The notes under the pieces: model-generated
The model's database searches: none
The model's input: only the letters and a program-made list of their open reading frames with translations
Told to the model about the DNA's origin: nothing
In this document: positions 17,348-63,937 of the stretch, piece after piece
Numbering within the stretch: position 1 is the first letter of the stretch
How the letters are laid out: every line of letters starts with the position of its first letter
Made by a program: the position numbers and the translations under genes
Source: an uncultured Candidatus Berkelbacteria bacterium
Lineage (GTDB): Bacteria; Patescibacteriota; UBA1384; UBA12157
Assembly (NCBI GenBank): GCA_903877885.1
Contig: CAIRFN010000007.1
Span: 111-64,110 of the forward strand
DNA length: 64,000 nucleotides
Direction of reading: 5' to 3'

Positions 17348-17383
17348 AGTATCCTCATTTTTGTTTTTGTATTTTAAAGTATC

Positions 17384-48198: not shown

Positions 48199-48270
48199 AT
48201 CTATATCTTACCGATTTTCCCCTACAATATCAAGACCAAAAACAATCTAAAAAAATATTGTTTAGTTCTT

Positions 48271-48306
48271 TTAACACATTATGCGCATATACGCAAAATG
48301 TGTTAA
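48271..48306. promoter_or_regulatory. Palindromic operator-like site (TTAACACATT-N16-AATGTGTTAA) between the PaaX-like gene and rnhA.
   Basis: Perfect 10-bp inverted arms with a GCGCATATACGC core. Confidence 0.5.
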
Positions 48307-48334
48307 ATAATTATTTTAGATTATATTATTTTAT

Positions 48335-48958
48335 TTATCTTTTCCTTGATCTAAGATCCTTTCCTTGATTTAAGATACCTCGATCGACAAATTCAGAGAC
48401 TAAATCAATTTCTGATTCGATAATATCGGCCACCAAATATTTAACATATAGCTCGATTTGATAGAGATCTCTTAAATAACTAATCTCGCGAGCGCAATCA
48501 TAAGGAAAAACAAAAACTGATTTTTGAATTTGATAAAAACCAATTTCCTGGAGTTTGCGTCGGAAAGCATCCCTGGTTTTACCCTTAGTATTAGGAATAT
48601 CGAAAAGTACAATTCGCCATTTTCCATCCCAACTAGTTTTGGCAACTTTAGGCATTTCTCTAGCCAAATAATTGGGCACCAAATTTTTCCCTTTTTGAGT
48701 CAACTCGACTATCTCCCTGTTATCCTTATGAAAAACTTCGATAATTTTTTCTTTTTTTAACCGGTTTAAAATAGCTCGAAAACGACTTTTATCAAATTCT
48801 CGCCAAGAAAAATAATCGTCAATCGCCTTTTGATAATTCTTACTACCATCAAAAATTTGATACATAAAATTGTGCGCATCGATCAAATAAAGCATAATTT
48901 GTCTGGTAGTCAAAATAACTTTTTTTACCATTATTTTCTTTTGCATTTTTATCTTCAA
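48335..48958 (-). CDS. PaaX-family-like transcriptional regulator (winged HTH plus a Cas2-fold middle domain).
   Basis: WDGKWRIVLFDIPNTKGKTRDAFRRKLQEIGFYQIQKSVFVFP matches the PaaX W.G.W..V.YDIPE..R..R...L...GF..LQ.SVW..P block. Flanked by palindromic operator-like sites. Confidence 0.6.
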   Translation of the reverse strand: MKIKMQKKIMVKKVILTTRQIMLYLIDAHNFMYQIFDGSKNYQKAIDDYFSWREFDKSRFRAILNRLKKEKIIEVFHKDNREIVELTQKGKNLVPNYLAREMPKVAKTSWDGKWRIVLFDIPNTKGKTRDAFRRKLQEIGFYQIQKSVFVFPYDCAREISYLRDLYQIELYVKYLVADIIESEIDLVSEFVDRGILNQGKDLRSRKR

Positions 48959-48972
48959 TTTTTATAATTTTT

Positions 48973-48997
48973 TGCGCATATACGCAAAATGTGTTAA
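48973..48997. promoter_or_regulatory. Second copy of the operator-like core (TGCGCATATACGCAAAATGTGTTAA), just upstream of the PaaX-like gene.
   Basis: A 25-bp exact match to the right half of the 48271-48306 site. Confidence 0.5.
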
Positions 48998-49184
48998 TGA
49001 ATTTTATATTTAAATACTTATAACAAATCTTTGAAATGGTCATTTATATTGAAGATGAAGAAATATTACTTTGGCGAGAGCTACCATCCGTATGAATAAT
49101 TATTTTTTCCATAAACTAATCATACGGATTTTAGAGAACTTTTTCAAGATTAAATTAGTGTTATTTTCATACTAATTCTAATTT

Positions 49185-51131
49185 TTACTGATACACTACA
49201 CCCAAATTACCATTACTGTATTTATTAATCTTAAAATTGCCATTTGTAGCTAGCCAATAGATAGGTTGATCATTAAAACTTATCCCGAAATCATAATATT
49301 GAAAGAAATAACTAAAAGAACTGGAAGTAAGATTAAAAATCTTAAATATATCCTGATCTTGACTAGTCCATGAATAAGAAGCAGTTACTGCTTTCGGTGT
49401 AAAATTATTCCACGGTACAACTCCGAGATTATCATTCAAGCCAATACTCATATTAGATGTCCGATAACCACCATTTAATCCAGTACCAGACCGAAGTGCA
49501 TCTGTGACATCACCTTTAACCGCGATCCAATACATACCGCAAGGATTAGCAACAGGTACCGTAACATCATAAGTATAAGTAACCCATCCACCATTATAAG
49601 GATCATAATTAAAATAAGTTTCTTCAGCGGTTTCGCCAGTCTTTTTCTGATAAGAACAATCTGTAGCCACTGAATCATCCCCGGCATATTGGAAACCATC
49701 TTTAGTCACATTGAAAACTTTGGACATTTGATCATTTCCTTGTCCAGCGTAATTTCTAGATATTACCACAGTAGGCGCCGAGTCAAAAAACCCGGCTGGA
49801 AAATTGACTTGGTTAATATTATCATCAATCGGACTATTAGCATGAAAACCACCAGTAATAACATTTTGAATTTGACCTTTTAGGATAATATAGTAAGCAC
49901 CACAGGTATTTGCAGGTTTACTACTTGAATCAGTACAGCCACTACCACCGGCACCATTAATTCCAAAGCTATTCGAAAAAAGATGATTAATATTTGCCAT
50001 GATACTACTTCGCGCCCAAGAGTTCACAGAGATTGTTATTGCTGACGGTTGAGCATTGCCGGTAAAAGGTTGAAATAATGTATTCCAAGCACCCGTAATC
50101 TGGTCATCATAACTTGCTAAATTAGGGTTAACAAACCCTGACCGGATTTCGGCTGTTTCGATAATTACAGGATTAGCTATCACTGCCACGCTGACCGAAG
50201 CGCTTGCCGGTGTCGTGCCTTCGGCGCCATAACAAGTAATTGAATAAGCCGTGGTAGTTGTGGGCGAAATTGCTTGAGTACCGTTTAGGCCAGAAACAAC
50301 AAAATTAACAGCTGAACAAATATTAGTATTGGTCGATGTCCAGGTTAAAGTGCTGGAACTGCCAGAAGTAATCGTAGTTGGATTAGCAACTAAAGTAACT
50401 GTTGGCGGCACTAATGGCGGTGGGATATTATTTACAGTAACATCGGCCGTTGCATCGACTAAAGCACCAGCGCTATTATAACAAGTCAGATGATAAGTCG
50501 TAGTAGGAGCAGTTGAAGGGGAAATTGGTGCAGAGCCGTTTATTGAATTGGAAGTATTAAAATCTGCGCTAGTACAATGATCAGTATTTATTGATGTCCA
50601 AATTAAAGTCGATGGCGCTCCCAAAGTAACAACACTGGGACTAGCATAGAATGATGTAATTAGTGGCGCTGGCGGCGCCACAGGTGGAGTTACTGTAATT
50701 TTTACGCTAGTATTAGCTGGGGTTGTACCATCAGCACCAATACAATTAATATAATATGTTGTATCTACAGTTGGACTCACTGGTTGTGTGCCATAAATAT
50801 TATTTGGATGAAAATCCGAATTACTACTTGTACAACTAGTAGCATTTTTGGGACTCCAAGTTAAAGTACTAGAACTACCAGAATTAATCGATGTCAGGCT
50901 AGTCGTCAAAGTCACTGTTGGATTTTGAACAATAGTTGGATTTGGTAACAACAAATCAAAATTACTATCAACTTGTTGGCCATTTTCATCCCAAAAAACA
51001 TCAACACCAATGTGGCGACCGGGATTAGTTGCGGCAAAAACTTTGGTACCAAAAGTTAGAACTAGAATAAAAATCAGTCCGGCAAATAACAAGGCTTGAA
51101 AATTGAATTTGTGTTTTGTCATATTTTGCAA
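49185..51131 (-). CDS. Large secreted protein with Ig-like repeats; candidate pilus-associated adhesin, paralog of the 52996-54789 gene.
   Basis: Signal peptide plus a shared N-terminal module TFGTKVFAATNPGRHIGVDVFWDENG. Repeated ~90-aa T/S-rich units (TLTWTS...C...GT...SPT...Y.I.C). Shared C-terminal NGNFKINKYSNG.LG..YQ. Confidence 0.6.
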   Translation of the reverse strand: MQNMTKHKFNFQALLFAGLIFILVLTFGTKVFAATNPGRHIGVDVFWDENGQQVDSNFDLLLPNPTIVQNPTVTLTTSLTSINSGSSSTLTWSPKNATSCTSSNSDFHPNNIYGTQPVSPTVDTTYYINCIGADGTTPANTSVKITVTPPVAPPAPLITSFYASPSVVTLGAPSTLIWTSINTDHCTSADFNTSNSINGSAPISPSTAPTTTYHLTCYNSAGALVDATADVTVNNIPPPLVPPTVTLVANPTTITSGSSSTLTWTSTNTNICSAVNFVVSGLNGTQAISPTTTTAYSITCYGAEGTTPASASVSVAVIANPVIIETAEIRSGFVNPNLASYDDQITGAWNTLFQPFTGNAQPSAITISVNSWARSSIMANINHLFSNSFGINGAGGSGCTDSSSKPANTCGAYYIILKGQIQNVITGGFHANSPIDDNINQVNFPAGFFDSAPTVVISRNYAGQGNDQMSKVFNVTKDGFQYAGDDSVATDCSYQKKTGETAEETYFNYDPYNGGWVTYTYDVTVPVANPCGMYWIAVKGDVTDALRSGTGLNGGYRTSNMSIGLNDNLGVVPWNNFTPKAVTASYSWTSQDQDIFKIFNLTSSSFSYFFQYYDFGISFNDQPIYWLATNGNFKINKYSNGNLGVVYQ

Positions 51132-51133
51132 AA

Positions 51134-51175
51134 CCTAGATTCCGGATCTAGGTTGCCAACCTGTCCGGAATGACA
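51134..51175. repeat. Repeat A, inverted copy.
   Basis: CCTAGATTCCGGATCTAGGTTGCCAACCTGTCCGGAATGACA, between the Ig-like protein and the vWA protein. Confidence 0.8.
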
Positions 51176-51186
51176 AAAAGGAAATT

Positions 51187-52917
51187 CTAATAATTATAGG
51201 TCACGTGGATGGTGGCGCCAGATGGTGGCACAAAGGAACCAACGAAAACAATCGCTTGTTTAAGTTCATTATAAGTCCAACCATTATCACCTTGAGCAAT
51301 AACCGTGCCATTGACCGTAACCTTGATCGTCGAAACGATTGGTTTATTCTTTAGTGTAAAACTACTCGCTAAATCAGCAATATTATTACTGATTAAATCC
51401 ATAATTTTTTGATAGTTAGCTATAGTGCCAGTGGAATTAAAAATGCTAGCAATAAGCCCGCCTGTCTCTGTGGCCGCTTGCTGATATCGATCGCTTCCGA
51501 GAGTATCACTAGTTGTACCACAATTTGGATTTACCGAATCATTAATATTTGAGGGCCTGGTTGTTCTAGATGTATCTACAACTACATCAATCACAACTTT
51601 CTTGGGATTAGCTTTTAACGCTCGAAGTCGATTAATATACGACATCGTACTGCCACAAGATTGATCATTTTCGTCAGACACAATAATCGCAATTAACCAA
51701 GCGTCAGACCTAAGAAAACCATAATTTTTATTAATGGTGGTTCCCCATTTTTGAGGCGCACTGACACTGCCATTTTCAGCAGCTTTGGCTGCCGCTACCA
51801 AACCCTGTTCGACACTTTGACTAATTCCGACCAAAACATTGCTTTTGAAATAATTAATAATATTTGACACTGTCAAATAATTAGGATCTAGAATCGGGTA
51901 AGCGCCAACAAAAAGACCATCGGTGTTTGCTTCAGCACCACCATTTTTAACTGTTGTGATTCCAATTTTATAATCAATTTTATTATTCGGATCGGTCAAA
52001 TTATTAATAAAAGCGGCGGCATTATCTTTTAAAGCATCTTGATCATCGTACATTGAACCAGAATTATCCACCACCCAAATAATATCGGCTTTGTTATTCG
52101 CAGAATTTTGAGTAAAAACTTCATCAGCCGAGTTTGGAAGCGGAGCTGGCGGAGTCGGTGGAGTCGGCGGAGTCGGCGGCGAAGGTGGCGCCGGGTTAAC
52201 CGTAATTATGGCTTCAGCGCTATTTGAAATATCATCATTATTTTTACAGGTTAAGTTATAATTGAAATTTGTAGTAGTGGCTGCTGTTGGTGAAACATCT
52301 TGATTGCCACTAGAAATAGAAGTTGATGTAAAACCAGACCCAGTTCTTGTACAACTTTTAACATCTGGTGATAAAATCCAGGTTAATTTACTTGAATTAC
52401 CAGAAATGATAGTTGTTGGATTGGCAGCCAAAGTCACTTTTGGTTCAACTGTAACGGTTATACTTTGACTAGTATGCGGATTAGTAGCTGTCGGATCGCC
52501 ATCACAATCAATCTTATAAGTTGTCTTGGCTGTTGGATTATCTGATTTATTACCGGATTCACTATTTGTTGCGGTTGAAATTGCAAAGCTACCCAAGTGA
52601 GATGAACTACAACTTTTAACATGTTTCACTGTCCAATTTAATGTTACTGAATCGCCATAGGTAATACTTGTCTGACTAGCAGTTAAAGTAATACTTGGAT
52701 CTGGAGCTGGTGGCGGATTCAAAACTGCAAAAGTGCCAGTGACAGTTTGGCTTTGATCATCCCAAGAAACTAGAACTTGAGCCCGGCGAACCAGATTCAA
52801 AGAACTAGCTTGGAAAAAACCTTCGTTTAAAAAAACGCCAACCATAATCGCTAAAACCACTGCCACCGCGGCAGTATAAAATAGAAATTTTTTGTTTTTG
52901 ATTAGTTTTTTAAACAT
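51187..52917 (-). CDS. Membrane-anchored protein with Ig-like repeats, a (PTP)n linker and a C-terminal von Willebrand factor A domain (MIDAS DNSGS); PilY1-like candidate tip adhesin.
   Basis: N-terminal TM; TLTAS/TLTAN repeats; PPSPPTPPTPPTPPAP; IIWVVDNSGSMYDD...AF..N MIDAS motif. Confidence 0.65.
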   Translation of the reverse strand: MFKKLIKNKKFLFYTAAVAVVLAIMVGVFLNEGFFQASSLNLVRRAQVLVSWDDQSQTVTGTFAVLNPPPAPDPSITLTASQTSITYGDSVTLNWTVKHVKSCSSSHLGSFAISTATNSESGNKSDNPTAKTTYKIDCDGDPTATNPHTSQSITVTVEPKVTLAANPTTIISGNSSKLTWILSPDVKSCTRTGSGFTSTSISSGNQDVSPTAATTTNFNYNLTCKNNDDISNSAEAIITVNPAPPSPPTPPTPPTPPAPLPNSADEVFTQNSANNKADIIWVVDNSGSMYDDQDALKDNAAAFINNLTDPNNKIDYKIGITTVKNGGAEANTDGLFVGAYPILDPNYLTVSNIINYFKSNVLVGISQSVEQGLVAAAKAAENGSVSAPQKWGTTINKNYGFLRSDAWLIAIIVSDENDQSCGSTMSYINRLRALKANPKKVVIDVVVDTSRTTRPSNINDSVNPNCGTTSDTLGSDRYQQAATETGGLIASIFNSTGTIANYQKIMDLISNNIADLASSFTLKNKPIVSTIKVTVNGTVIAQGDNGWTYNELKQAIVFVGSFVPPSGATIHVTYNY

Positions 52918-52948
52918 ATTTTTTTACTCCTCGAACATTTTATGAAAT

Positions 52949-52988
52949 CTGGATTCCAGATCCTGATGCCATCCGGTCTGGAATGACA
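52949..52988. repeat. Repeat A, inverted copy.
   Basis: CTGGATTCCAGATCCTGATGCCATCCGGTCTGGAATGACA. Confidence 0.8.
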
Positions 52989-52995
52989 AGACAGA

Positions 52996-54789
52996 TTACT
53001 GATATGTTGTGCCAAGGCTACCATTTGAATATTTATTAATTTTAAAATTACCATTGGCGCCCACCCAGAAAAATGGTCTCGTGGTCGATGAACCAAAACA
53101 ATAAACTCTTGGGGAAAATTGAAAACTATTCTGGACAATATTAAAAATACTATAAATATCTTGTTGGCCATCAATATAACCCGTGCTGCCAAAAGCAGCG
53201 ACAATCGCTTTAAGATTCGTGGCCGAGCTGATATTTGTTGTGCCTGTAGCATTGTCACCATATGGACTAGCGCCGCAATCTTCTCCTGTACCGGAACGAA
53301 TAGCATCAGTAACATTTCCTTTAATTGCAATCCAATGAACACCACACCAGTTGGCGGCTGAATTGCCATTCAAATCTAAACTGGAAGTATCATCACAGTC
53401 AGTCGTATAATAACAAGGATTATTAACACCATCTTCAACGCATTCAAGATGCGAAGCTACTCCGGCAGTTTGAATATATGTCAAATCGCCAGTATATTGA
53501 AAACCATCTTTAGTAATATTCATCACCATTGGCATTTGCTCACTTTGTTCAAACCAGTTTCTCGAAAGAATAACTGCGGTCGGCGCAGTTGTGAAAGAAC
53601 CGGCTGGAAAATTAACTTGATTAATAGTTTTATTCGGGTCAGAACTAATATTGTAATTTGCATGAAAACCGCCAGTAATTACATCTTTGACTTGACCAGT
53701 TAGGCCGATGTAATAAACACCGCATCGATTCGTGGTTGTAGTTACACCTCTGGCGGTTCTAACGATATCTGGGTAACCAGTGGATGAATCTTTACAGCCA
53801 TCGATTTGAGTTGTGCCATCGCCAGAATAGCTAAAAGAGTTTGATGTCAGACTGTGCGCTTTTGGCATTTGATCGTTGCCACCCCAAAAGTTACGAGCAA
53901 TAACTAAAGCTGACGGATTTCCAAGCGTAAATGGTTTAAAAGTAGCTTTAAAATTGTCTGTGCCGGTATTGGCAATAAACCCAGAACGGATTTCGGCCGT
54001 GCCCTCGATGGTTGGCGTCGGAGTAGGAGGAGAAGCAACAGTAATGCTAACTTGTTTGTAAGCTGATACTGTTTTTGTAGCATCATAACATCTGATTTTA
54101 TAAACCGTATCTGTCGTTGGATGAACAATCGCACTACCATTCAAGCCTGGATTATAACCCGTACCTTGATCGTCACAACTAGTTGCGTTAGTTGAAGTCC
54201 AAACCAAAGTTGCTGTTTCGCCAGAGTTGATAGTCGCACTCGACAGACCATTAACAGTTAAAGTTGTGTCAAGTATTGAAACGGTTACACTAGTAGTAGC
54301 TGGTGGTGTACCCGTCGCACCGACACAATTTATATTATAAGTTGTAGTAGTTGCAATTGGATGAACTATTGCCGAACCACTGGTGCTTATTGGATTTATA
54401 TAATTAGGATCAGTATTAATGGTTGTACAACTGTTAGCATGTGTCGATGACCAAGTCAGAATCGCAGACCCTTGAGAATTGATAATTGCGCTCGACGAAC
54501 CATTTACTGTTAAAGTAACTATCGGAGCCAAAACTACTGGTAAAGGATTATCCGGTGTAGTATCCGAAGGCGGTTCTGCCGGAGGATTAACAATAATATT
54601 CTGGTTTGGTAATAACAGATCGAAATTACTATCGACTGTGATGCCATTTTCGTCCCAAAAAACATCGACACCGATATGGCGGCCAGGATTAGTTGCGGCA
54701 AAAACTTTGGTACCAAAAGTTAGGACTAATACGAAAATAATTAGTGAAAATAACAAGGATTGAGAATTGAATTGTCTTAATTTCTTCAT
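52996..54789 (-). CDS. Large secreted protein with Ig-like repeats; paralog of the 49185-51131 gene.
   Basis: Identical N-terminal module (TFGTKVFAATNPGRHIGVDVFWDENG) and C-terminal module (ANGNFKINKYSNGSLGTTYQ). Confidence 0.6.
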   Translation of the reverse strand: MKKLRQFNSQSLLFSLIIFVLVLTFGTKVFAATNPGRHIGVDVFWDENGITVDSNFDLLLPNQNIIVNPPAEPPSDTTPDNPLPVVLAPIVTLTVNGSSSAIINSQGSAILTWSSTHANSCTTINTDPNYINPISTSGSAIVHPIATTTTYNINCVGATGTPPATTSVTVSILDTTLTVNGLSSATINSGETATLVWTSTNATSCDDQGTGYNPGLNGSAIVHPTTDTVYKIRCYDATKTVSAYKQVSITVASPPTPTPTIEGTAEIRSGFIANTGTDNFKATFKPFTLGNPSALVIARNFWGGNDQMPKAHSLTSNSFSYSGDGTTQIDGCKDSSTGYPDIVRTARGVTTTTNRCGVYYIGLTGQVKDVITGGFHANYNISSDPNKTINQVNFPAGSFTTAPTAVILSRNWFEQSEQMPMVMNITKDGFQYTGDLTYIQTAGVASHLECVEDGVNNPCYYTTDCDDTSSLDLNGNSAANWCGVHWIAIKGNVTDAIRSGTGEDCGASPYGDNATGTTNISSATNLKAIVAAFGSTGYIDGQQDIYSIFNIVQNSFQFSPRVYCFGSSTTRPFFWVGANGNFKINKYSNGSLGTTYQ

Positions 54790-54807
54790 TATTCTTTCCT
54801 TTGTATG

Positions 54808-55224
54808 TTAATCTGCAATTTTAATAGTTCGTCTAAAATCTTTTTTGTCGATAGTTATAACATCTTCATTAGGCATATTTGCACAAACTTTTTGATCAGT
54901 GGACCAATTACCAGCATCATCTTTACAGCGATATAATGATTGATCTGCTATATGAATATAATAAATTCCGGCAGCGCAAGTATCTAAATTTGGACAATTA
55001 CCAGTAGTAATATCTGGAGCTCCGACGGTTCTTTGCTGGTCAGCCATAGATTTAACAATGTTCATCCCCTCTTGAGCAATGCCATTGGCTTGAACTTTGT
55101 ATTTGTCTTGTGCGCCAAATTTAATATTGCCGGTTTCCACGGCAACAAAGGCAATAATTACGATGATAAAAATCACCATAGCGATTAGGACTTCGATTAG
55201 GGTGAACGCTCGTTTAGTTTTCAT
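54808..55224 (-). CDS. Type IV pilin-like (minor pilin/pseudopilin) with a prepilin leader.
   Basis: MKTKRAFTLIEVLIAMVIF: a class III signal with G/A-FTLIE and Glu at +5. Confidence 0.75.
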   Translation of the reverse strand: MKTKRAFTLIEVLIAMVIFIIVIIAFVAVETGNIKFGAQDKYKVQANGIAQEGMNIVKSMADQQRTVGAPDITTGNCPNLDTCAAGIYYIHIADQSLYRCKDDAGNWSTDQKVCANMPNEDVITIDKKDFRRTIKIAD

Positions 55225-55244: not shown

Positions 55245-55339
55245 TGTCATTCCAGACAGATTGGCAATCTTGATCTGGAATCCAGGAAAATTGTTACTGG
55301 ATCCCCGATGTTGAATTACCATTCAACTCGAGGATGACA
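55245..55339. repeat. Composite repeat A+B unit.
   Basis: TGTCATTCCAGACAGATTGGCAATCTTGATCTGGAATCCAGG then CTGGATCCCCGATGTTGAATTACCATTCAACTCGAGGATGACA, between minor pilin genes. Confidence 0.85.
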
Positions 55340-55353
55340 AGGAGAAATTATTA

Positions 55354-55899
55354 TTAAAAAGATTCGCTGGTTTGATAAATTCGGATCGTATCTTTATTAT
55401 GAATTCCATTTCCGATAGAATTACCAGAATTATCAGTAATTTTTGCTTTTAATGTAATTTTGCGACCGTTTTTATAACCGGTGCTTAAAATATTGTCGCA
55501 TACTCCACCAGAACATTTGACTTGGTAGATATATACGCCAGCAACCAAAACATCTGAATTACTATTTTTCCAATTTACTAAGTCTGATTGTGATTTTTTA
55601 ATGGTTTTATAACCATCAGTAGGATCATTATAATAAATATTTACTTCATTATCTGACGGAATAGAAGAAATCGACGCACCAGAAACTCCAGATTCAACAT
55701 TAGAAGCTTGTTGTAAATATGCAGTCCAGCCGTTATTAATACCGCTTCGCGCTAGGCTATAGGTTTCGGTAATGGTTTTTGATTGAGAAGTAAGTTTAAC
55801 ATCGGAAACAATCGCCAGAGAAATGGCGGTGATGACAATTAAAACAATGGCAGTAAAAAGTAAGACTAGAATTAAAGCAAAACCTTTTTTTTGACGCAT
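55354..55899 (-). CDS. Pilin-like protein (PilX-like minor pilin).
   Basis: Start at MRQKKGFALILVLLFTAIVL (prepilin-like hydrophobic N-terminus without Glu5). The ORF-track start overlaps the upstream gene. Confidence 0.55.
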   Translation of the reverse strand: MRQKKGFALILVLLFTAIVLIVITAISLAIVSDVKLTSQSKTITETYSLARSGINNGWTAYLQQASNVESGVSGASISSIPSDNEVNIYYNDPTDGYKTIKKSQSDLVNWKNSNSDVLVAGVYIYQVKCSGGVCDNILSTGYKNGRKITLKAKITDNSGNSIGNGIHNKDTIRIYQTSESF

Positions 55900-55927
55900 T
55901 TTTTCCTTTAGAATATTATGGACCAGC

Positions 55928-56575
55928 TTACGGCGCCGCAGTATATTCCGGATTTGGAATTGAAACCATATTTCTGGTATTTTCCCCATCCATAGTGAAA
56001 GTGGTAGCCAAATTAACTTCATCATTAATATCATTAGCGCTAACAGCCGTAATTTTAACTGCTAATTTAGGGATAAATTTAGTATTAGATGGATCTGTCA
56101 TTGGTTTATAACCAGTTAAATCAAAAGTTTTGATATGAACTTTTTCAGGGGTTAAACTACTACCAACTGATGATAAATCTGTTGAATGTAACAAATCTCC
56201 AGAACAATTATTTTGAGCTGTTTTTAATGAATTGTCAGCTAGACCGAAATAAGTACAGACTGTACTTCCGGTCTCGCCTTTTGAAACAATTACAACCATT
56301 TGATTTGGACTAGAATCATAGGCTTTAAATCCATAGACGGAAGTACCACCGATTGTCGCTTCGTCATTCGCATTATTCATTCTAACGGCCATTTCGTCTA
56401 AAGCGCGGCGAATGGAATCATTCAAAATTTTAATTTGCGCGGAGCGAAGTCGGCCGGCAGTAAAATTGGCTAATCCAGAAACCATAACTACAACCATAGC
56501 CAAAATACCCAGCGTGACCAACATTTCTACTAATGTGAAAGCTTTTTTCTTCATATGTTTATAGAGTTTTAACAT
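55928..56575 (-). CDS. Type IV minor pilin/pseudopilin.
   Basis: MKKKAFTLVEMLVTLGILAMV prepilin leader. Confidence 0.7.
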   Translation of the reverse strand: MLKLYKHMKKKAFTLVEMLVTLGILAMVVVMVSGLANFTAGRLRSAQIKILNDSIRRALDEMAVRMNNANDEATIGGTSVYGFKAYDSSPNQMVVIVSKGETGSTVCTYFGLADNSLKTAQNNCSGDLLHSTDLSSVGSSLTPEKVHIKTFDLTGYKPMTDPSNTKFIPKLAVKITAVSANDINDEVNLATTFTMDGENTRNMVSIPNPEYTAAP

Positions 56576-57119
56576 AAGTTACTAAACCAGTTAATTTATC
56601 GATTGTTATAGTAAAACTATTTTCAGGAATAGTGGTGTTATGGATCTTAAAAGATAGATTATTATCAAGCGACTTGCCATTTGATATATCTTCTAGCATA
56701 CCGATTGTTGGCGCATTGTCAGCAACGAAATCAAGACAATAATCAGGTGAGCAAGAGTTAACATCAAAAGTAAAATTTTCTAATTTTATGTCTCCAGTTA
56801 AATCCAAAAGTAATTTTTCACCAGTCTGATTTCCACTTTTGTCAATCTGATAACCCCAAATTTGTGGCGGACTTGAAACAATTCTTATTCTTTCCGCTTT
56901 CATTCCAGATGTAGCGTCAAAAGCCGGCAAAATAGCTAAATTGCGTGTTTCGGCAAAAACATTTTGAATCTGTGAAGCATAGCTTTCAACCATTTTATTT
57001 CGTCTGGCTGATTGATAAACCCCAACGCTAATAGTCATCATAATTGCCATGATCGCCATAACAATCATCGTTTCTACCAAAGTGAAAGCTTTTTTATTTT
57101 GATAAAGATTTTTTTTCAT
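56559..57119 (-). CDS. Type IV minor pilin/pseudopilin (GspH/FimT-like).
   Basis: KKAFTLVETMIVMAIMAIM prepilin leader. Confidence 0.7.
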   Translation of the reverse strand: MKKNLYQNKKAFTLVETMIVMAIMAIMMTISVGVYQSARRNKMVESYASQIQNVFAETRNLAILPAFDATSGMKAERIRIVSSPPQIWGYQIDKSGNQTGEKLLLDLTGDIKLENFTFDVNSCSPDYCLDFVADNAPTIGMLEDISNGKSLDNNLSFKIHNTTIPENSFTITIDKLTGLVTYVKTL

Positions 57120-57120
57120 T

Positions 57121-57909
57121 TTAGCGAATAAGTAAATGTGTATACCAAGTTAAAATTTGATTCCCCCAAAAAATCGTAATAAACAGACCTAAAATTAGAA
57201 ATGGCGCAAACGGTAATTGATCTTTTAATTTGGATATTTTACAAATCATCAGGATAATTCCAACAACAGCGCCTAAAAAGAATGAGAAAAAGGAACTGAT
57301 TAAAACTAATGGCCAACCAATAATGGCGCCAAGCAGAGCGCCAAGTCCAATATCCCCCGCGCCCATCCATTTTTCCTTGGATATTAGAACCATCAAACCA
57401 AGGAAACCACCGAGAGCAAGAGCGCCATAGAATGAAGAAAGAAGCATGGAGTATGGAGCATGGAAAAAGAAAAATGATATTGCTAAATAAATTATCCACA
57501 GGCCGGCGGCGATGATAATTAACCAGTCGGAAATTTCTAGGTTCAACATATCGTAAACCAAGGCCACGATTAAGACACAAGAAATGGCCATCAAGAAATA
57601 TGTTTCAAGATTGGTTAAACCGAATTTCCAAAAAATTAAAGCAAAGATGATAGCAGTACCGGCTTCGACCAACGGATATTGCCACGAGATCGGTTTCTGG
57701 CATTTACTGCATTTGGCGCGAAGTAAAATAAAAGATAAAACCGGAATTAGTTCATACCAAACCAGGGTTTTCTGGCAATGCGGGCACTGCGACCGACCGA
57801 AGAAAATCGTGGTTAAATCATCGAATCGCAAAATAATCACGTTTAAAAACGAACCGATGATCAGTCCAGAAATGATAAAAATTAAGTAATCAAGAATAAT
57901 GTTGTTCAT
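57121..57909 (-). CDS. pilD: Prepilin peptidase (A24 family).
   Basis: N-terminal tetra-Cys (CPHC...CSKC), TM helices and the conserved catalytic Asp blocks. Confidence 0.85.
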   Translation of the reverse strand: MNNIILDYLIFIISGLIIGSFLNVIILRFDDLTTIFFGRSQCPHCQKTLVWYELIPVLSFILLRAKCSKCQKPISWQYPLVEAGTAIIFALIFWKFGLTNLETYFLMAISCVLIVALVYDMLNLEISDWLIIIAAGLWIIYLAISFFFFHAPYSMLLSSFYGALALGGFLGLMVLISKEKWMGAGDIGLGALLGAIIGWPLVLISSFFSFFLGAVVGIILMICKISKLKDQLPFAPFLILGLFITIFWGNQILTWYTHLLIR

Positions 57910-58035: not shown

Positions 58036-58587
58036 TTACATATCTGCGCAAGTGAAGGTTTTGCCGTTAACTAAACCAGTATCTGGACATTGGCTATTTT
58101 GGAAAGTATTGGGGAAACTGGTACACAATCTAACTTTACCGGCATCATTGGCGCAAATCGTTGGTTGATCCGGGCTATTGGTTACATTTTTACTTGGCAA
58201 AAGCGCGGAAACAGTCCAATGAGTGGCGTCACTTTGAATTGTAACATAACCAGCAAAGTCTGATTGATTATTGTCAATATCACTGGCAAATTTAGCAATA
58301 TTAGTCGCGGTTTCCGGTGAAACTAAAGCTGGTTGCCAGCTAGCTGTTAGCTGACCGCAACTTGGCACGGTTGTCGGGTTGCATTTTCCAACCAGATAAG
58401 TCCCGAGTTGATTATTGACCTGAAAAATCGAAAGTTGTTGAGCTATACCTTTAATATCCGAACGCACCCGAATATCTTGAGAATTTCGTTTAACCGAATA
58501 ACCAGCTATAACTACACCATAAGCTAAACCGCCAACAATTAAAATAGTTAAAGCAATTTCTAAAAATTTAACACCTTTTTCATTCAT
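58036..58587 (-). CDS. Pilin-like protein with a non-canonical N-terminus.
   Basis: MNEKGVKFLEIALTILIVGGLAYG: hydrophobic alpha-1-like helix with a Glu, but no G/FTLIE cleavage motif. Confidence 0.45.
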   Translation of the reverse strand: MNEKGVKFLEIALTILIVGGLAYGVVIAGYSVKRNSQDIRVRSDIKGIAQQLSIFQVNNQLGTYLVGKCNPTTVPSCGQLTASWQPALVSPETATNIAKFASDIDNNQSDFAGYVTIQSDATHWTVSALLPSKNVTNSPDQPTICANDAGKVRLCTSFPNTFQNSQCPDTGLVNGKTFTCADM

Positions 58588-58680
58588 ATTTTCCTTTTGA
58601 TATTATTCATCTATATCTTTTCTCAAGGGATCGCCCCACCTCCGCCGCTTGGCGGTTGAGGCGATTTGCTTGAAAACTAA

Positions 58681-59121
58681 TTATGAAGCAGGACAGACAG
58701 TCGCAGTCAAAGCAATCGGTGTAGAAGTAGAAGCTAAGGCTTTGCTTGTACCTGCACTATCGATACAATAATAACCTGTAGATGTTTTAGCCTCGATAAC
58801 ATAGGTTGTTGCATTCAACGCTTGATAATAATTTCCACCAGTTGGAACATTAGCTAGAATATCCGTAACAACTGTTTTATAATTACCAGTAAGATCGGCA
58901 ACAGCTGGACTTAACACTGTAGGATCAGCAGCAGTGATAGCAAAAGTATTAGCAGTATTATCTGATTCTAACTGGGTGCGAATTTGTGTTAGACCAGAGA
59001 TTACTCTTGTGTCTTTAGCTTTACTACGTGCTGAATTCAATGAAACTAGAACCATGGCGGCCAAGATACCAATAATGGCGATGACGACCAAAAGTTCAAT
59101 AAGTGTAAAAGCTTTTTTCAT
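58681..59121 (-). CDS. pilA: Type IV major pilin (PilA-like).
   Basis: MKKAFTLIELLVVIAIIGILAAMV leader and a C-terminal Cys pair (C...C). Confidence 0.8.
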   Translation of the reverse strand: MKKAFTLIELLVVIAIIGILAAMVLVSLNSARSKAKDTRVISGLTQIRTQLESDNTANTFAITAADPTVLSPAVADLTGNYKTVVTDILANVPTGGNYYQALNATTYVIEAKTSTGYYCIDSAGTSKALASTSTPIALTATVCPAS

Positions 59122-59140
59122 TTTTCTCTCCTTTTATTAC

Positions 59141-59235
59141 TGTCATTCCAGACAGGTTGGCAACCTAGATCTGGAATCCAGGATAATTAATTCTGGATTC
59201 TTGATGTCGGATTACCATCCGGCTCGAGAATGACA
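59141..59235. repeat. Composite repeat A+B unit.
   Basis: TGTCATTCCAGACAGGTTGGCAACCTAGATCTGGAATCCAGG then TTCTGGATTCTTGATGTCGGATTACCATCCGGCTCGAGAATGACA, between pilA and pilC. Confidence 0.85.
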
Positions 59236-59300
59236 AATTTTTTGATTATTTGATTATTCCTTAGGCTTAATCGACCAACTAGCCTTTTATTAAGGATAAA

Positions 59301-60377
59301 TTAAAAGCCTGTCGAGGCGATAGAATAAATCGGTGACATAATAGCGTAAACCAAGAAACCAACACCGCCACCAATAATCACAATAATCATTGGCTCGATT
59401 AAACCAGCCAAACCTTTAATCATATTATCAGTTTCTTTTTCATAAAAATCGGCCATTTTGTTTAAAACAATTTCCATTTTTCCGGTTTGCTCACCGACCA
59501 TAACCATTTCGGAAATCAAAACTGGAAAATTTTTATCACGTTGCATTGGTACCGACATTGGAATGCCGCGTTCAACTTGGGCACTGATGTTTTTCAAACT
59601 GACAGCATAAACACGATTTTGAATCACGTCCGAAGTAATGGCAATGGTTTCGATAATTGGCAAGCCCGCGCCAATTAACATACTCATGGTGCGGCAGAAC
59701 CTGGCCATATAAATTTGAGTATATAAATCTTTAATCACCGGGAATTTGATCTTTAATCTGTCCCATAAACTACCGCCGTTTTCACCGCGGAAAAAGTAGA
59801 ACAAAATTATACTGACAATAATAAGCGCGATTAATTCAGCCCACCAAAATTTAACTGTAAAATCAGACAAAGCCACAATCATAGCCGTAGCAAATGGTAG
59901 TTGTGTGCCGGTCGAGTCGAACACGGTTTTAAGTTTAGGAATAACAAAAATCATCATAATAACGATAATGCCAATCATGGCAATCAAAATGAAAGCCGGA
60001 TAAAACATAGCGGAACGAACTTTACTGGTAAAATCTTGATTCATTTCCAACTGATCAGCCAACTGATCTAAAACTTTGTCGATTTGACCCGAACTTTCAC
60101 CAGAACGAACAACTGAAATAAAAACCGGATCAAAGACATCTTTAAATCGGCTCAAAGCATTAGAAAGGCTTTGGCCTTGTTCGAGATCAGCGATGACTTG
60201 TTGCGCCACTTTTTGCAAATACGGATTAGCGCTTTGTTGGGCGATCACTTTAAAAGATTGGTCGAGAGCTAAACCCGCGCCAAGCATGGTCGCCAACTGG
60301 CGAGTTAAAAAGACTTTCTCTTTTAGTGAAACGTGATTAAAAAGAGAAATGTTGCCACCAAGATTAAGTTTAGCCAT
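59301..60377 (-). CDS. pilC: Type IV pilus assembly platform protein PilC (GspF family).
   Basis: Two GspF repeats, three TM segments, a conserved MLIG.GLP...I block. Confidence 0.85.
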   Translation of the reverse strand: MAKLNLGGNISLFNHVSLKEKVFLTRQLATMLGAGLALDQSFKVIAQQSANPYLQKVAQQVIADLEQGQSLSNALSRFKDVFDPVFISVVRSGESSGQIDKVLDQLADQLEMNQDFTSKVRSAMFYPAFILIAMIGIIVIMMIFVIPKLKTVFDSTGTQLPFATAMIVALSDFTVKFWWAELIALIIVSIILFYFFRGENGGSLWDRLKIKFPVIKDLYTQIYMARFCRTMSMLIGAGLPIIETIAITSDVIQNRVYAVSLKNISAQVERGIPMSVPMQRDKNFPVLISEMVMVGEQTGKMEIVLNKMADFYEKETDNMIKGLAGLIEPMIIVIIGGGVGFLVYAIMSPIYSIASTGF

Positions 60378-60504
60378 GAGTTTACCCCTCCAAAATCGAC
60401 GAATGTCGGTTTTATTTCCCTGATACTATTATAACAAATTCTATAAAAAAACCATAGATGATGTTGCGTCATTGCCATGACGAAAACGCTGCGCGTTTAT
60501 CGGC

Positions 60505-61572
60505 CTAGTAAACCATCATCTTAAACGCCTTGGGATCTAAGGCCCAGGTTAAAGCGCTGTCAATGGTAATATCGCCTTTGGAAACCAGTTCGGCCAAAAC
60601 CTTATCCATACTAATCATGCCTTCGGCGGCCGAAGTTTGAATGATGTTAGTAAGTTGATGAGTTTTGCCTTCACGAATCGTGTTGCGAACCGCCGAATTG
60701 GCAATCATAATTTCGCAAGCCGCCACTCGCCCACCTTGAGCTTTTGGAATTAGTCTTTGACTTACTACGCCTAATAAAACATTAGCTAATTGCATTCTAA
60801 CCTGTTGTTGTTGATGCGGCGGAAAAACATCGACGACACGATCAGCCGTTTGTGCCGCCGAGTTGGTGTGCAAAGTGGTAAAAACCAAATGGCCAGTTTC
60901 TGCCATAGTCAAGGCCGCTTCAATTGTTTCCAAATCGCGCATTTCACCGATTAAAACCACGTTTGGATCTTCTCGAAGAGCGGAACGTAAAGCCCGGCCG
61001 AAAGTGTTAGTATCGGAACCGACCTCGCGTTGGGAAATAATCGACTTTTCGTGTTCAAATACATATTCAATCGGATCTTCAATCGTAATAATATGCTCGG
61101 TTCGAGTGTGATTGATCTGGTTGATCATCGCGGCCAAGGTGGTTGATTTACCATGCCCGGTTGGACCGGTAATAATGACCAAACCCTGACTTGGTGTAAT
61201 GAACTTTTCCAAAATCGGCGCTAGGCCAAGTTCAGCAATATTTTGAACCAATTTGGGAATAACTCGCAAGCTGGCGGCAATATAACCTTTTTGAAAATAA
61301 ACATTAGTTCGAAAACGCATGCTCTGATAACCAAAGGAAAAATCAATTTCCTTGCGGATTTTTAGCCGTTCAACTTGATCTTGAGTCATGAAACTCTGAA
61401 CCAATTGCAACGCCACCTCGCCAGTAACTGGTTGAGTTTGGGCGATTGGCATTAAAACACCATCAATTCGAAGCATTGGCGGCATACCAACCGTGATATG
61501 TAAGTCCGAAGCTTTACGCTCAACTGCCATATCCAATAATTTTTTCATTTCCGGAATTAAACCAATTTGCAT
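60505..61572 (-). CDS. pilT: Twitching-motility retraction ATPase PilT.
   Basis: GLVIITGPTGHGKSTTLAAM Walker A; His/Asp boxes; about 350 aa with no N-terminal GSPII domain. Confidence 0.85.
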   Translation of the reverse strand: MQIGLIPEMKKLLDMAVERKASDLHITVGMPPMLRIDGVLMPIAQTQPVTGEVALQLVQSFMTQDQVERLKIRKEIDFSFGYQSMRFRTNVYFQKGYIAASLRVIPKLVQNIAELGLAPILEKFITPSQGLVIITGPTGHGKSTTLAAMINQINHTRTEHIITIEDPIEYVFEHEKSIISQREVGSDTNTFGRALRSALREDPNVVLIGEMRDLETIEAALTMAETGHLVFTTLHTNSAAQTADRVVDVFPPHQQQQVRMQLANVLLGVVSQRLIPKAQGGRVAACEIMIANSAVRNTIREGKTHQLTNIIQTSAAEGMISMDKVLAELVSKGDITIDSALTWALDPKAFKMMVY

Positions 61573-61593
61573 AGACCCTCCTAATTAATAATT

Positions 61594-61646
61594 TTATTGC
61601 GATGGAATACTGAGCAACAAGGTTCTGCCGTCAGGCAGGTTCTTAT
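61594..61646. repeat. Repeat C copy 2.
   Basis: ATTGCGATGGAATACTGAGCAACAAGGTTCTGCCGTCAGGCAGGTTCTTAT, downstream of the pilB stop. About 90% identical to copy 1. Confidence 0.7.
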
Positions 61647-63937
61647 TCTATTAATGTGACTCTTAAAACTTCGCTGATAGTAGTTAAACCTTGAAGTGCC
61701 TTTATCAAGCCGTCTTGTTTCATGGTAATCATGCCGTCGGCAATGGCCGCCACTTTTATTTCCGAAGCTGGTCGACGGTTAATAGCTAAATCTTCAATTT
61801 TTTCTGTCATCGACAAAACTTCATAAATACCCAATCGGCCGGAATAACCATTATTGCATTCCGTACACCCGGTGCCTTCAAAAAATTTATATGGTTTGGG
61901 TAAATTAAGATTCGCCAATTCTTTTTCAATATCGGCCACAAGTTGCGGCGGAATATTAGCCTCGTGTCTACAATGCGGACAAACTTTTCGCACCAAACGT
62001 TGACCAATCACTAAATTGATTGAAGAAGTAATTAAGAATGGTTCCACGCCCATATTGGTAAGTCGCGGCAAAGCGCCAGCGGCATCATTGGTGTGAAGCG
62101 TCGATAAAACTAAATGCCCTGTTAAAGCGGCGTGAGTCGTCATACCAGCAGTTTCGGCGTCACGAATTTCTCCAACCATAATAATATTTGGATCTTGTCT
62201 TAAAACCGAACGTAAACCTTCAGCAAAGGAAAAACCGATTTTTGGTTTAACCTGACATTGATTAATGCCAGGCATTTCATATTCAACCGGATCTTCGAGA
62301 GTAATCACATTAACCGATGGACCGGCAACTTTTTTAAGAATTGAATACAGAGTAGTTGATTTACCTGAACCAGTTGGACCAGTTGAAAGAATCACGCCAT
62401 ATGGTTTGGTGATATTTTCTTCCAAAACTTTCAAATTTCGACCCGAAAAGCCTAAATCTTCCAAGGTATAAATATTTTGAGATTTATCTAAAATACGCAA
62501 AGCCGCTTTTTCGCCACGAATCGTTGGCAGGGTTGAAACACGCAAATCGATTTCGTGACCTTGAACTTTAACATCAAACCGACCATCTTGCGGCACGCGC
62601 GTTTCATCGATTTTCATACGAGATAAAATTTTAATTCTCGAAACGAGCGCAGCGTGCAAAGCCAGTGGCGCTTTTAAGATATCGCGCAAAATACCATCAA
62701 CACGGAAACGGAAACGCAAATCAGCGCCTTCAGCCTCGATATGAATATCGGAAGCTTTCATGGCTACGCCAAGCGCAACCACGCCAGCTAAAATTTGCGG
62801 AATATTTCCGGTTTGAACGATATTTTTGAAAGTATCGATATTGGTAACTGGCTGACCCAAAAACGTATCCAAATCATTTTCCGGCGCAATCACCGCTTTG
62901 GCTTCCATTTCTTCTTCATTACGATCCGTCAGTTGAGCCTGCTGTTCTTGTTGGATTTTAGCGGTTTCGTAAGGAATCGGCCGACGAACAAATTTTTTGC
63001 GTTCATTTGGCGTAACTGGTTGAACTGAATTCGACGGATTGGATATTGTAGCCGCCAGCGCAACTGGAGCCGGTGTAACATTTTCGGAAATTGGCGCAGT
63101 CGAAGTGATTGTCGGTACATTTTGCGGTGGTGGCGGTACTGGCATATTTGGGCTTTCTGCCGAATTTTCTTCCGGTTTTCGATAATAAAGCTTAATTGAT
63201 TCGTCAATTTCAGTCGGGCTGGCGACAAATTCTTCAATCACAATATTATTTTTATTGCGGACAAAGTCTAAAATTTCTCGAACTTTTTGATCGGTTGGAT
63301 CAGACAATGCCACTTGAATGGTATTTGGAGCGGTGCTGGCAAAAACCACCATTTTATATTTTTGAGAAATTTCCACCGGAAATTTGGAAATAACATCGTA
63401 AGGAATTTTAATTGTCCGTAAATCTACGGTTCGCAGATGAGAAATTTCCGGATAAGAAACGTCTTTATCCAGAGTTTTAACTTCAGCTGTTGGACCGCTG
63501 GCAAATCGAGCGGCCACCTTTTGAATATCTTCTGGTGTGGTAATATAAAGTTCAACAATCAAACCTTTTTTATCTTTAAGATCAGCTAAAATCGCCGGCG
63601 GATTACCGCTTAACTGGCTCGGCGCGCCAATCGCCACTTTAATTTTTCGTTCGCCCAGACGCTCGAAACTTATGAGTTGATATTTTTGCACATCAGCTAA
63701 AGGAATAAGATTAAACGCCTCGGGCGTGATTTCATAACCTTCCAACCGAATAAACGGCAAGTCAAAAATCACCGCGTAGGCTTTAGCAATATCTTCCGAA
63801 GTTGCTAACTTTTCTTGTCGCAGTTTAGCTTCAATTTGCTCGTTTGTCGCTTGTTTATCAAAATCTCCCACCTGATTTGGTGTGAGCCGATTTTTTTCTA
63901 AAAGCACATCGATAATTGTTTTTCGAACTGTATCCAT
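61643..63937 (-). CDS. pilB: Type IV pilus extension ATPase PilB (GspE family) with a long N-terminal region and a Pro-rich linker.
   Basis: N-terminal GSPII-like domains, Walker A STGPTGSGKSTTLYS, and a C-terminal tetra-Cys (CPHC...C..C) zinc site. Confidence 0.85.
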   Translation of the reverse strand: MDTVRKTIIDVLLEKNRLTPNQVGDFDKQATNEQIEAKLRQEKLATSEDIAKAYAVIFDLPFIRLEGYEITPEAFNLIPLADVQKYQLISFERLGERKIKVAIGAPSQLSGNPPAILADLKDKKGLIVELYITTPEDIQKVAARFASGPTAEVKTLDKDVSYPEISHLRTVDLRTIKIPYDVISKFPVEISQKYKMVVFASTAPNTIQVALSDPTDQKVREILDFVRNKNNIVIEEFVASPTEIDESIKLYYRKPEENSAESPNMPVPPPPQNVPTITSTAPISENVTPAPVALAATISNPSNSVQPVTPNERKKFVRRPIPYETAKIQQEQQAQLTDRNEEEMEAKAVIAPENDLDTFLGQPVTNIDTFKNIVQTGNIPQILAGVVALGVAMKASDIHIEAEGADLRFRFRVDGILRDILKAPLALHAALVSRIKILSRMKIDETRVPQDGRFDVKVQGHEIDLRVSTLPTIRGEKAALRILDKSQNIYTLEDLGFSGRNLKVLEENITKPYGVILSTGPTGSGKSTTLYSILKKVAGPSVNVITLEDPVEYEMPGINQCQVKPKIGFSFAEGLRSVLRQDPNIIMVGEIRDAETAGMTTHAALTGHLVLSTLHTNDAAGALPRLTNMGVEPFLITSSINLVIGQRLVRKVCPHCRHEANIPPQLVADIEKELANLNLPKPYKFFEGTGCTECNNGYSGRLGIYEVLSMTEKIEDLAINRRPASEIKVAAIADGMITMKQDGLIKALQGLTTISEVLRVTLIE

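Follow-up and report, generated by a model that had tools for sequence, protein, structure and literature searches.

Candidate pilus-tip adhesins with a pilin-like hairpin at the end of a type IV pilus operon of a Candidatus Berkelbacteria bacterium

Bacteria of the candidate phyla radiation (CPR; Patescibacteria) live on other microbes, and type IV pili are the best-supported of their host-recognition devices (PMC11623550). In the closest described system, PilC/PilY1 docks on the minor pilin PilK by β-strand addition, with the strand being provided either in trans by the adhesin or in cis, as in GspK, ComGG, and CpaL (PMC13533445; bioRxiv 10.64898/2026.09.18.752573). The DNA analyzed here, referred to below as the window, is a stretch of 64,000 nucleotides from an uncultured, ultra-small Candidatus Berkelbacteria bacterium (contig CAIRFN010000007.1, positions 111 to 64,110), and the subject of this report is the type IV pilus operon of the window, in which four minor pilin genes (mp1 to mp4) are followed by genes for three non-pilin proteins, labeled proteins 1, 2, and 3. 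Knowledge of what occupies the tip of CPR pili is limited to the Saccharibacteria. We propose on the basis of sequence comparisons, and with a probability of roughly 0.55, that proteins 1 to 3 are alternative pilus-tip adhesins that would dock on mp4 by β-hairpin complementation in trans.

An original prediction made from the DNA of the window had already put forward these proteins as pilus-tip adhesins. That reading is now supported by the fusion of a lectin module to pilins in relatives of proteins 1 and 3, by the presence in all three proteins of a PilV-like hairpin that is missing from mp4, by the recurrence of this arrangement in other loci, and by a von Willebrand factor A (vWA) domain in protein 2. 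The support is comparative and computational.

A truncated minor pilin and a shared hairpin

Open reading frame (ORF) calls together with Pfam and NCBIfam matches placed a complete type IV pilus operon on the minus strand of the window, running from position 63937 to position 49185. The operon comprises the genes for PilB, PilT, PilC, the major pilin, a 183-aa pilin-like protein, the prepilin peptidase PilD, mp1 to mp4, and proteins 1 to 3. The ORF calls bore out the prediction that the last three genes (597, 576, and 648 aa) lie on the same strand directly 3' of the four minor pilins. Protein 3, which has 645 aa in public calls, closes the operon. The proteins had been described as giant but are mid-sized. 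The gap between mp4 (TAA stop) and protein 1 (ATG start) is 18 nt in length and contains a ribosome-binding site, AAGGAAAG; proteins 1 and 2 are separated by 78 nt and proteins 2 and 3 by 55 nt, and no convincing terminator was found among the genes from mp4 to protein 3. The same genes were found on six public metagenome contigs at 99.7-100% identity, the variants being one single-nucleotide polymorphism and an 18-nt indel in the proline-rich (PTP) linker of protein 2, showing that the gene structure is not an assembly artefact.

The four genes mp1 to mp4 encode the short leader, the class III motif (G/A-F-T-L-x-E, without Glu5 in mp3), and the hydrophobic α1 helix of a type IV pilin. Proteins 1 to 3 gave no match to N_methyl and have Sec-like N-termini, and so do not carry a pilin class III signal. 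They are also not modular pilins, as they are encoded by separate genes with a TAA stop, a ribosome-binding site, and a signal peptide of their own. The best NCBIfam matches of mp4 were to PilV (7.8e-8), ComGE (2.7e-6), and GspI (7.4e-5), all below cut-off and confined to residues 2-64, and a search of the PDB with the profile of the PilV-like family gave no class assignment. We aligned the PilV-like pilin family with MAFFT and built from it a hidden Markov model (HMM) of 148 columns. The typical C-terminus of a family member consists of an F-x-R-x-V-x-I strand and a loop, followed by a V-x-V-x-V-x-W-x-D-G...L..L hairpin. mp4 spans columns 2-111 of the 148, ending right after its F-R-R-T-I-K-I strand, and is without the last two β-strands. 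Four pilins terminate at column ~111, just before the hairpin, namely mp4, its ortholog in locus L007, a pilin in L087, and a pilin fragment in L126.

Proteins 1 and 3 are paralogs with a shared N-module, as predicted (BLASTP 1e-71 and 2e-47; the N-terminal ~60 aa are almost identical). In both proteins the predicted signal-peptide cleavage, between VFA and AT, is followed by the 26-residue motif RHIGVDVFWDENGxxVDSNFDLLLPN, and 24 of the 26 hairpin residues are shared. The N-module had been thought to belong to these two proteins, but the motif is also found in protein 2. In all three proteins the module is similar to the two-strand hairpin with which PilV/GspI-class minor pilins end. From this correspondence we infer that mp4 is the docking partner of proteins 1 to 3.

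The modular pilin P0136 provides a bridge between the two parts. Its pilin portion and mp4 are clear homologs, with a local score of 190 across the first 58 mature residues, and its segment NYYRTVSFGD aligns with the C-terminal DFRRTIKIAD of mp4, after which P0136 runs on with ATNQKINVIISWQEGGVTKTQQFNSFLATA before its lectins. The best local match of the N-motif of each of proteins 1, 2, and 3 is the hairpin segment of P0136, with scores reached by 1, 9, and 20 of 1000 shuffles, respectively; for protein 1 the matching residues are P0136 138-165. A survey with an HMM seeded on the adhesin motifs covered all ORFs of ~120 loci, ~80 of them CPR pilus operons. In 39 matches the hairpin forms the very C-terminus of a small PilV-like pilin in minor-pilin position, and among large non-pilins only proteins 1 to 3 and two L007 proteins matched strongly.

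The stop codon of mp4 (TAA) and the start codon of protein 1, 18 nt apart (window 54787-54810), share a reading frame, as would happen at random with a chance of 1 in 3. The shared frame is compatible with an origin by the splitting of a P0136-like modular pilin. The idea of a frameshifted fused gene was rejected because stop, ribosome-binding site, and signal peptide are clean and identical in the six independent contigs; the C-terminal or internal position of the L007 hairpins further counters it.

The arrangement recurs. L007 is a Candidatus Berkelbacteria metagenome-assembled genome and is the closest genome to the window in the GTDB collection. After its truncated pilin come a 386-aa β-propeller protein that bears the hairpin at its C-terminus and a 735-aa protein that bears it internally; these two otherwise unrelated proteins have 17 of 26 hairpin residues in common. 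Much of the operon and its flanks is conserved between L007 and the window (PilT 92%, PilC 79%, PilD 66%, mp2-mp4 33-40%, and RNase H 62% identity), but the cassette between mp4 and RNase H is replaced, with the hairpin alone retained. In L126 the truncated pilin is followed 13 nt later by a triple-lectin protein, P0142, with a C-terminal hairpin. Thus, wherever DNA downstream of a truncated pilin is available (window, L007, and L126), the next genes bear the hairpin. P0135, which combines a β-helix, an internal hairpin, and a triple lectin, starts 22 nt after a 141-aa pilin, and the slot right after the last minor pilin is accordingly kept by such proteins in four loci (the window, L007, L126, and the P0135 locus). 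L130 is the reciprocal case, in which the lectins are fused to a pilin (P0139) and the 173-aa PilV-like pilin has the hairpin in cis. A metagenome scan with the pilin alignment returned mainly generic matches to pilin N-termini, L087 alone being informative. The hairpin case rests on the convergence of the exact truncation point, synteny in multiple loci, cis/trans reciprocity, the P0136 bridge, and near-identical hairpins in otherwise unrelated proteins of one genome.

Some features of these loci are recorded for completeness. The 386-aa protein of L007 (15325-16485), which ends in the hairpin, has an NHL/SBBP-type propeller, and its architecture recalls PilY1. The 735-aa protein (17142-19349) has a β-helix-like N-terminal part, one repeat, the internal hairpin, and a Cys-rich C-terminal domain with a weak Xlink/C-type-lectin-like match. 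Between the two lies a gene for a 204-aa DUF5667-like membrane protein, a homolog of which is found 3' of the truncated L087 pilin. L130 also encodes (2780-3790) a GspK-like minor pilin of 336 aa, without Glu5, that has a β/γ-crystallin-like C-terminal domain and is a further example of a cargo domain on a CPR minor pilin.

Candidate lectin and vWA heads

Internal alignment resolved the C-terminal ~330-aa region of proteins 1 and 3 into three tandem units. The original prediction was correct that the two proteins have a C-module in common, but had taken it for a short tail, whereas it comprises ~330 aa of three H-type-lectin-like units. Pfam found no match in intact proteins 1 and 3, and whole-protein sequence searches of the window proteins against the PDB gave nothing useful. 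An exhaustive HMM search of 1.84 billion (1.84e9) representative proteins found 10 members of the lectin-module family, both window proteins included, with relatives retrieved at E values of 4e-48 to 5e-12; a word-indexed homolog search with the module profile found just 2 proteins, and a genome-contig scan with profile A1 found no relative. Several of the relatives are recognized by the Pfam family H_lectin (PF09458): P0134 at 6e-42 (142 bits over six units), P0139 at 6e-12 (45.9 bits), and P0136 at 6e-7 (30 bits). Unit 2 of the window proteins scored 13.7-13.8 bits with PF09458 against a cut-off of 24 (E ~0.07), this family being the top match for the protein 3 unit and one of the leading matches for that of protein 1. 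When the unit profile was compared with the PDB, five of six matches were to SLL-2 (0.021) or Helix agglutinins and covered the whole unit; at E 0.021-0.73 these matches are weak but specific. The Pfam scores of the relatives, unit 2 of the window proteins, and the PDB comparison together identify the units of proteins 1 and 3 as putative H-type lectins. An AlphaFold2 (AF2) model of the module, made from a 3-sequence alignment, was all-β but unreliable (predicted local distance difference test score, pLDDT, 39.7).

H-type lectins function in trimeric form, and their binding sites lie where the subunits meet (PMC6048534). Given this trimeric mode of action and the presence of three units per chain (six in P0134), the head of proteins 1 and 3 is probably a single-chain pseudo-trimer. 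After the third unit the C-termini of proteins 3 and 1 (49188-49244 and 52999-53055) and of most family members have a conserved tail, NGNFKINKYSNGxLGxxYQ, which in the pilin-fused P0138 and P0139 reads NGNF(K/N)L(F/Y)WSYK. This tail may be the closing strand of the pseudo-trimer.

The relatives tie the module to pili. In five of the eight family members from outside the window (P0136-P0140) the lectin module is fused C-terminally to a type IV pilin, with N_methyl detected by Pfam in all five. Pilin and module thus form one polypeptide in P0136-P0140, as expected of modular pilins. H_lectin was detected in four of the five, the weakest at 1.2e-3; only P0136 and P0139 pass the gathering score, and P0140 has no match. 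P0139 resides within the minor-pilin operon of L130. By the domain-fusion argument, these five fusions indicate that the lectin module belongs on pili.

Protein 2 has a different head. AF2 modeled its last 315 residues with a pLDDT of 66 and a predicted template modeling score (pTM) of 0.69, and an α/β Rossmann-like vWA fold is present. The predicted metal ion-dependent adhesion site (MIDAS) is supported in part by alignment. The DNSGS motif after β1 and the Asp of VSDE after β4 are both invariant in 6 homologs, and the Thr position, in a low-confidence loop, is Ser in protein 2 and T, S, or Y in the homologs. The vWA domain is not the C-terminal domain it had been taken for, since a further β-sandwich follows it. 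The nearest families are NCBIfam NF033765 (CglD; 1.2e-10) and NF052240 (Bdellovibrio "MIDAS family adhesin"; 1e-8), both matches being far below cut-offs. The vWA head would be a candidate for metal-dependent ligand binding. The PTP linker that precedes the vWA domain varies in length, the version in contig L004 (protein P0001) being shorter by 18 nt (6 aa).

Between hairpin and head, all three proteins contain Cys-pair repeats of ~85 aa. The repeat arrays that the original prediction read as Ig-like thus exist, but amount to only 2, 2, and 3 units in proteins 1, 2, and 3, respectively. The repeat is promiscuous, being common to 456 proteins of many architectures. Its Ig-like fold is presumed only, as the repeats gave one match to Big_3_5 (0.0036) and no significant match in the PDB. 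Recognition had been assigned to these variable middle repeats, but the candidate binding heads are the H-type lectins and the vWA domain instead. Diversification shows up in comparisons between species, with replacement of the entire cassette; within the sampled population variation is limited to the 18-nt linker indel.

Proposed docking on mp4 and alternative explanations

In the mechanism we envisage, proteins 1 to 3 would be exported by Sec, and the ~25-residue two-strand hairpin of an adhesin, given in trans, would complete the β-sheet of membrane-anchored mp4. The mp4-adhesin pair would then enter the priming complex with mp1-mp3, and pilus extension would take the pair to the tip. There, a stalk of 2-3 small β repeats would present either the lectin pseudo-trimer (proteins 1 and 3) or the MIDAS vWA domain (protein 2). 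Because three adhesins would compete for one pilin, pili of differing specificity would result.

Several observations weigh against this interpretation. The hairpins of proteins 1 and 3 escape an HMM made solely from distant pilins. With the full pilin HMM, those of P0142, P0135, protein 2, and the 386- and 735-aa L007 proteins fall on the missing columns 111-147, at scores of only 4-11 bits. A pilin-only position-specific scoring matrix (PSSM) ranks seven adhesin hairpins at z 4.8-7.1, with 23-84 of 759,287 26-mers scoring as high, many of which are true pilin termini. Because the pilin-only HMM missed proteins 1 and 3, we take homology of the hairpins to be supported, by P0136, the PSSM ranks, and synteny, and not to be proven. 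The assignment of mp4 to the PilV class depends on sub-threshold matches in the N-terminal helix. There are just three split examples with readable DNA, and two of these, the window and L007, are close kin. Protein 2 has a poor cleavage site, and its N-terminal helix may therefore be retained as a membrane anchor. Finally, an H-type lectin fold does not imply sugar binding, as CofB illustrates (PMC6048534).

Docking through the hairpin has to be set against other ways of explaining the locus. The adhesins could be associated with the pilus but attached otherwise, whether by the stalk of repeats, by the conserved tail, by the helix at the N-terminus of protein 2, or by binding to a different minor pilin such as mp3, with the hairpin being a vestige of fusion or a self-contained element. 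The lectin-pilin fusions and synteny show pilus association and are silent on its mode, the hairpin statistics are modest, and the pilin complemented in the published systems is of the PilK and not the PilV class (PMC13533445). Nevertheless, in four pilins the truncation falls precisely at the boundary of the hairpin, and the hairpin is the sole element common to otherwise unrelated downstream proteins in the window and in L007, so that we regard another mode of attachment as unlikely. The hairpin also changes position (N-terminal, internal, or C-terminal) while its sequence is kept, which fits a functional tag better than a vestige.

It is quite improbable, in our judgment, that proteins 1 to 3 are ordinary secreted or surface adhesins, or glycan-binding exoproteins, that are merely co-transcribed with the pilus genes and act apart from the filament. 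Of the eight relatives of the lectin module from outside the window, five are pilins; four loci keep the slot that directly follows the last minor pilin; and all three proteins contain the pilin-derived hairpin motif. Such independence would accord with signals that are of Sec and not prepilin type, with the occurrence of the repeat domain in hundreds of unrelated exoproteins, with vWA homologs that are stand-alone lipoproteins in Bdellovibrionota and other bacteria, and with the location of the relatives P0134 and P0140 outside pilus loci. We give very little credence to the further idea that the pilus machine exports or presents the proteins as cargo, in the manner of TcpF or CofJ, the N-terminal motif being a transient signal for recognition by a minor pilin. 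CofJ and TcpF are likewise operon-encoded and secreted, and their flexible N-termini bind the tip minor pilin (PMC6048534, PMC9565799). The motif is found at the mature N-terminus of all three window proteins, but is C-terminal or internal in related loci, and it resembles structural β-strands of the pilin fold and not a CofJ-like peptide; the lectin fold, moreover, sits on the secreted protein and not on a pilin. In monoderm CPR bacteria, among which the host probably belongs, Sec export alone already delivers proteins outside.

Beyond the window, we consider evenly balanced the broader proposal that a portable PilV-derived two-strand hairpin serves as a docking tag with which unrelated binders (triple H-type lectins, vWA, β-propeller, and β-helix) are swapped on and off an incomplete, split minor pilin. 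The CPR pilus tip would then be combinatorial, for host recognition, and licensing by β-strand addition would extend from PilK to a second minor-pilin class. If the hairpin-tag model is true, the mechanism known from PilC/PilY1-PilK also works via another minor pilin and in another geometry, and one pilus machine can probably display several interchangeable heads (lectin and vWA) in cassettes replaced between species. The model would also supply a sequence rule for finding tip adhesins in uncultivated lineages, namely a truncated PilV-class pilin with a hairpin-bearing neighbor.

The remainder of the locus and comparison with known systems

The coordinates of the operon genes, of the parts of proteins 1 to 3, and of a dispersed repeat are listed in Table 1.

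Table 1. Features of the type IV pilus operon and dispersed repeat copies in the window
Feature	Position	Strand	Remarks
PilB, PilT, PilC, major pilin, 183-aa pilin-like protein	58036..63937	(-)	Upstream part of operon
Prepilin peptidase PilD	57121..57909	(-)	Pfam A24_N_bact 8e-33, Peptidase_A24 3e-9
mp1, GspH/ComGD-class	56559..57119	(-)	Pfam/NCBIfam
mp2	55928..56575	(-)	GspJ/PilW-class by elimination only
mp3, GspK/PilX-class, without Glu5	55354..56034	(-)	Pfam PilX_N 0.017; NCBIfam GspK 0.004 (sub-threshold)
mp4, 138 aa, PilV/GspI/ComGE-class, truncated	54808..55224	(-)	Pfam N_methyl 8e-7
Protein 1, 597 aa	52996..54789	(-)	Sec-type signal peptide, hairpin, 2 Cys-pair repeats, 3 H-type-lectin-like units, conserved tail
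Protein 1 hairpin RHIGVDVFWDENGITVDSNFDLLLPN	54604..54681	(-)	Directly after cleavage between VFA and AT; PSSM z 4.8
Protein 1 repeats, two of ~85 aa (TLxW...C...Y.I.C)	54022..54525	(-)	
Protein 1 triple H-type-lectin-like module and tail NGNFKINKYSNGSLGTTYQ	52999..54006	(-)	Unit 2 vs PF09458, E 0.069
Protein 2, 576 aa	51187..52917	(-)	N-terminal hydrophobic segment, hairpin, 2 repeats, PTP linker, vWA/MIDAS, C-terminal β-sandwich
Protein 2 hairpin RRAQVLVSWDDQSQTVTGTFAVLNP	52714..52788	(-)	PSSM z 5.4; weak score on pilin HMM columns 120-139
Protein 2 Cys-pair repeats, two of ~85 aa	52201..52707	(-)	
Protein 2 (PTP)n linker, 9-nt tandem repeat	52142..52186	(-)	
Protein 2 vWA domain	51364..52134	(-)	MIDAS D-N-S-G-S, Ser in G-I-S loop, Asp of VSDE
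Protein 2 C-terminal β-sandwich	51190..51363	(-)	pLDDT 80-96; conserved in ~350-aa vWA lipoprotein homologs
Protein 3, 648 aa from TTG start	49185..51131	(-)	Signal peptide, hairpin, 3 repeats, 3 H-type-lectin-like units, tail
Protein 3 hairpin RHIGVDVFWDENGQQVDSNFDLLLPN	50940..51017	(-)	Matches P0136, PSSM
Protein 3 Cys-pair repeats, three of ~85 aa	50163..50930	(-)	
Protein 3 triple H-type-lectin-like module and tail	49188..50162	(-)	Unit 2 vs PF09458, E 0.067
Dispersed repeat copies	20425-20455, 27602-27632, 51145-51175 (-), 55245-55275, 57929-57959, 59141-59171		Partial copy 52967-52990

The mechanically called ORF of mp3 overlaps mp2 by 107 nt, and the public call has 211 aa; the start is probably the internal Met preceding KKGFALILV (MRQKKGFALILV...). 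The absence of Glu5 from mp3 is as found in GspK/PilX-class pilins. The 183-aa protein 3' of the major pilin (58036-58587, minus strand) has an N-terminus that is only degenerately pilin-like (KGVKFLEIALTILIVGG), and at the corresponding position L007 has a canonical second pilin (KKAFTLIELLVVIA).

An intergenic repeat of ~45-120 nt with the core TGTCATTCCAGACAGGTTGGCAACCTAGATC is dispersed in the window, with 6 copies against 0 expected by chance. Copies do fill several gaps of the operon, as the original prediction had noted, but others lie outside it, so that the repeat is not specific to the pilus genes. The copy between proteins 2 and 3 can form a 9-bp hairpin (z -1.9) without a U-run, and an Rfam scan of the window, the repeat included, gave no match. 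Downstream of the operon, two copies of a ~40-nt near-palindrome (TTAACACATT.TGCGCATATACGCAAAATGTGTTAA; 48269-48312 and 48960-49003) flank a minus-strand gene (48335-48958) for a 207-aa protein with a PaaX-like/Cas2-like domain (PF20803, 2.7e-21). This gene has no counterpart at the same position in L007. The near-palindromes look like operator sites for the PaaX-like regulator.

Among described proteins, the best family matches of the protein 2 vWA domain are myxobacterial CglD and the Bdellovibrio MIDAS family adhesin, and ~350-aa vWA lipoprotein homologs share the DxSxS and SDE motifs with protein 2. The CglD and Bdellovibrio proteins differ in being lipoproteins or gliding-motility adhesins and not products of pilus operons. 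The type IVb minor pilins CofB and TcpB (PMC6048534, PMC9565799) resemble what is proposed for proteins 1 and 3 in having an H-type lectin fold at the pilus tip and a functional unit of three lectins. However, CofB is a homotrimeric pilin, in contrast to three units in one non-pilin chain, and its site binds a secreted protein and not sugar; the comparison made here is at the level of the fold family.

Within the CPR, the lectin-like minor pilins PilX1 and PilX2 of the Saccharibacteria strain TM7x (PMC11623550) have other domains, a β-jelly roll and a seven-bladed propeller, and come from another phylum, and neither a hairpin tag nor a truncated pilin has been described for them. As with the window proteins, these are large tip-adhesin candidates of CPR pili encoded in a minor-pilin locus without a recognizable prepilin signal; PilX1 and PilX2 are needed for host binding. 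The repertoire of tip modules proposed for the window is also seen in the type IV pili of the monoderm Streptococcus sanguinis, where PilB has a vWA domain and PilC has Ig-like and lectin domains (PMC8179133, PMC9934059). The S. sanguinis proteins are modular pilins, as are the relatives P0136-P0140. In the window the modules are instead on separate proteins with Sec-type export signals, and the lectin is H-type in three tandem copies and not ConA-like.

The PilC/PilY1-PilK "plug" (Ellison et al., PNAS 2026, PMC13533445; Denic et al., bioRxiv 10.64898/2026.09.18.752573) offers the closest parallel. In both cases large non-pilin adhesins, putative ones in the window, are encoded with the core minor pilins, and the proposed docking would add one or more β-strands that a minor pilin lacks and that related systems provide in cis. 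A vWA domain also occurs in the PilY1 of some species, and L007 encodes a β-propeller protein with a C-terminal tag. The PilY1/PilC-like role suggested by the original prediction holds as far as the position in a minor-pilin operon is concerned, but not as homology: membership of proteins 1 to 3 in the PilY1 family was rejected, as Pfam and NCBIfam detected no propeller or PilC domain. The C-terminal tail NGNFKINKYSNG... of the window proteins recurs in pilin-fused relatives, which need no plug. The two systems differ in the tag, which in the window is an N-terminal two-strand hairpin of ~25 residues and in PilC/PilY1 is a strand of ~10-12 residues at the extreme C-terminus. They differ also in that the deficient pilin of the window appears to be of the PilV/GspI class and not the PilK class, in the provision of three alternative adhesins per operon, and in the CPR host.

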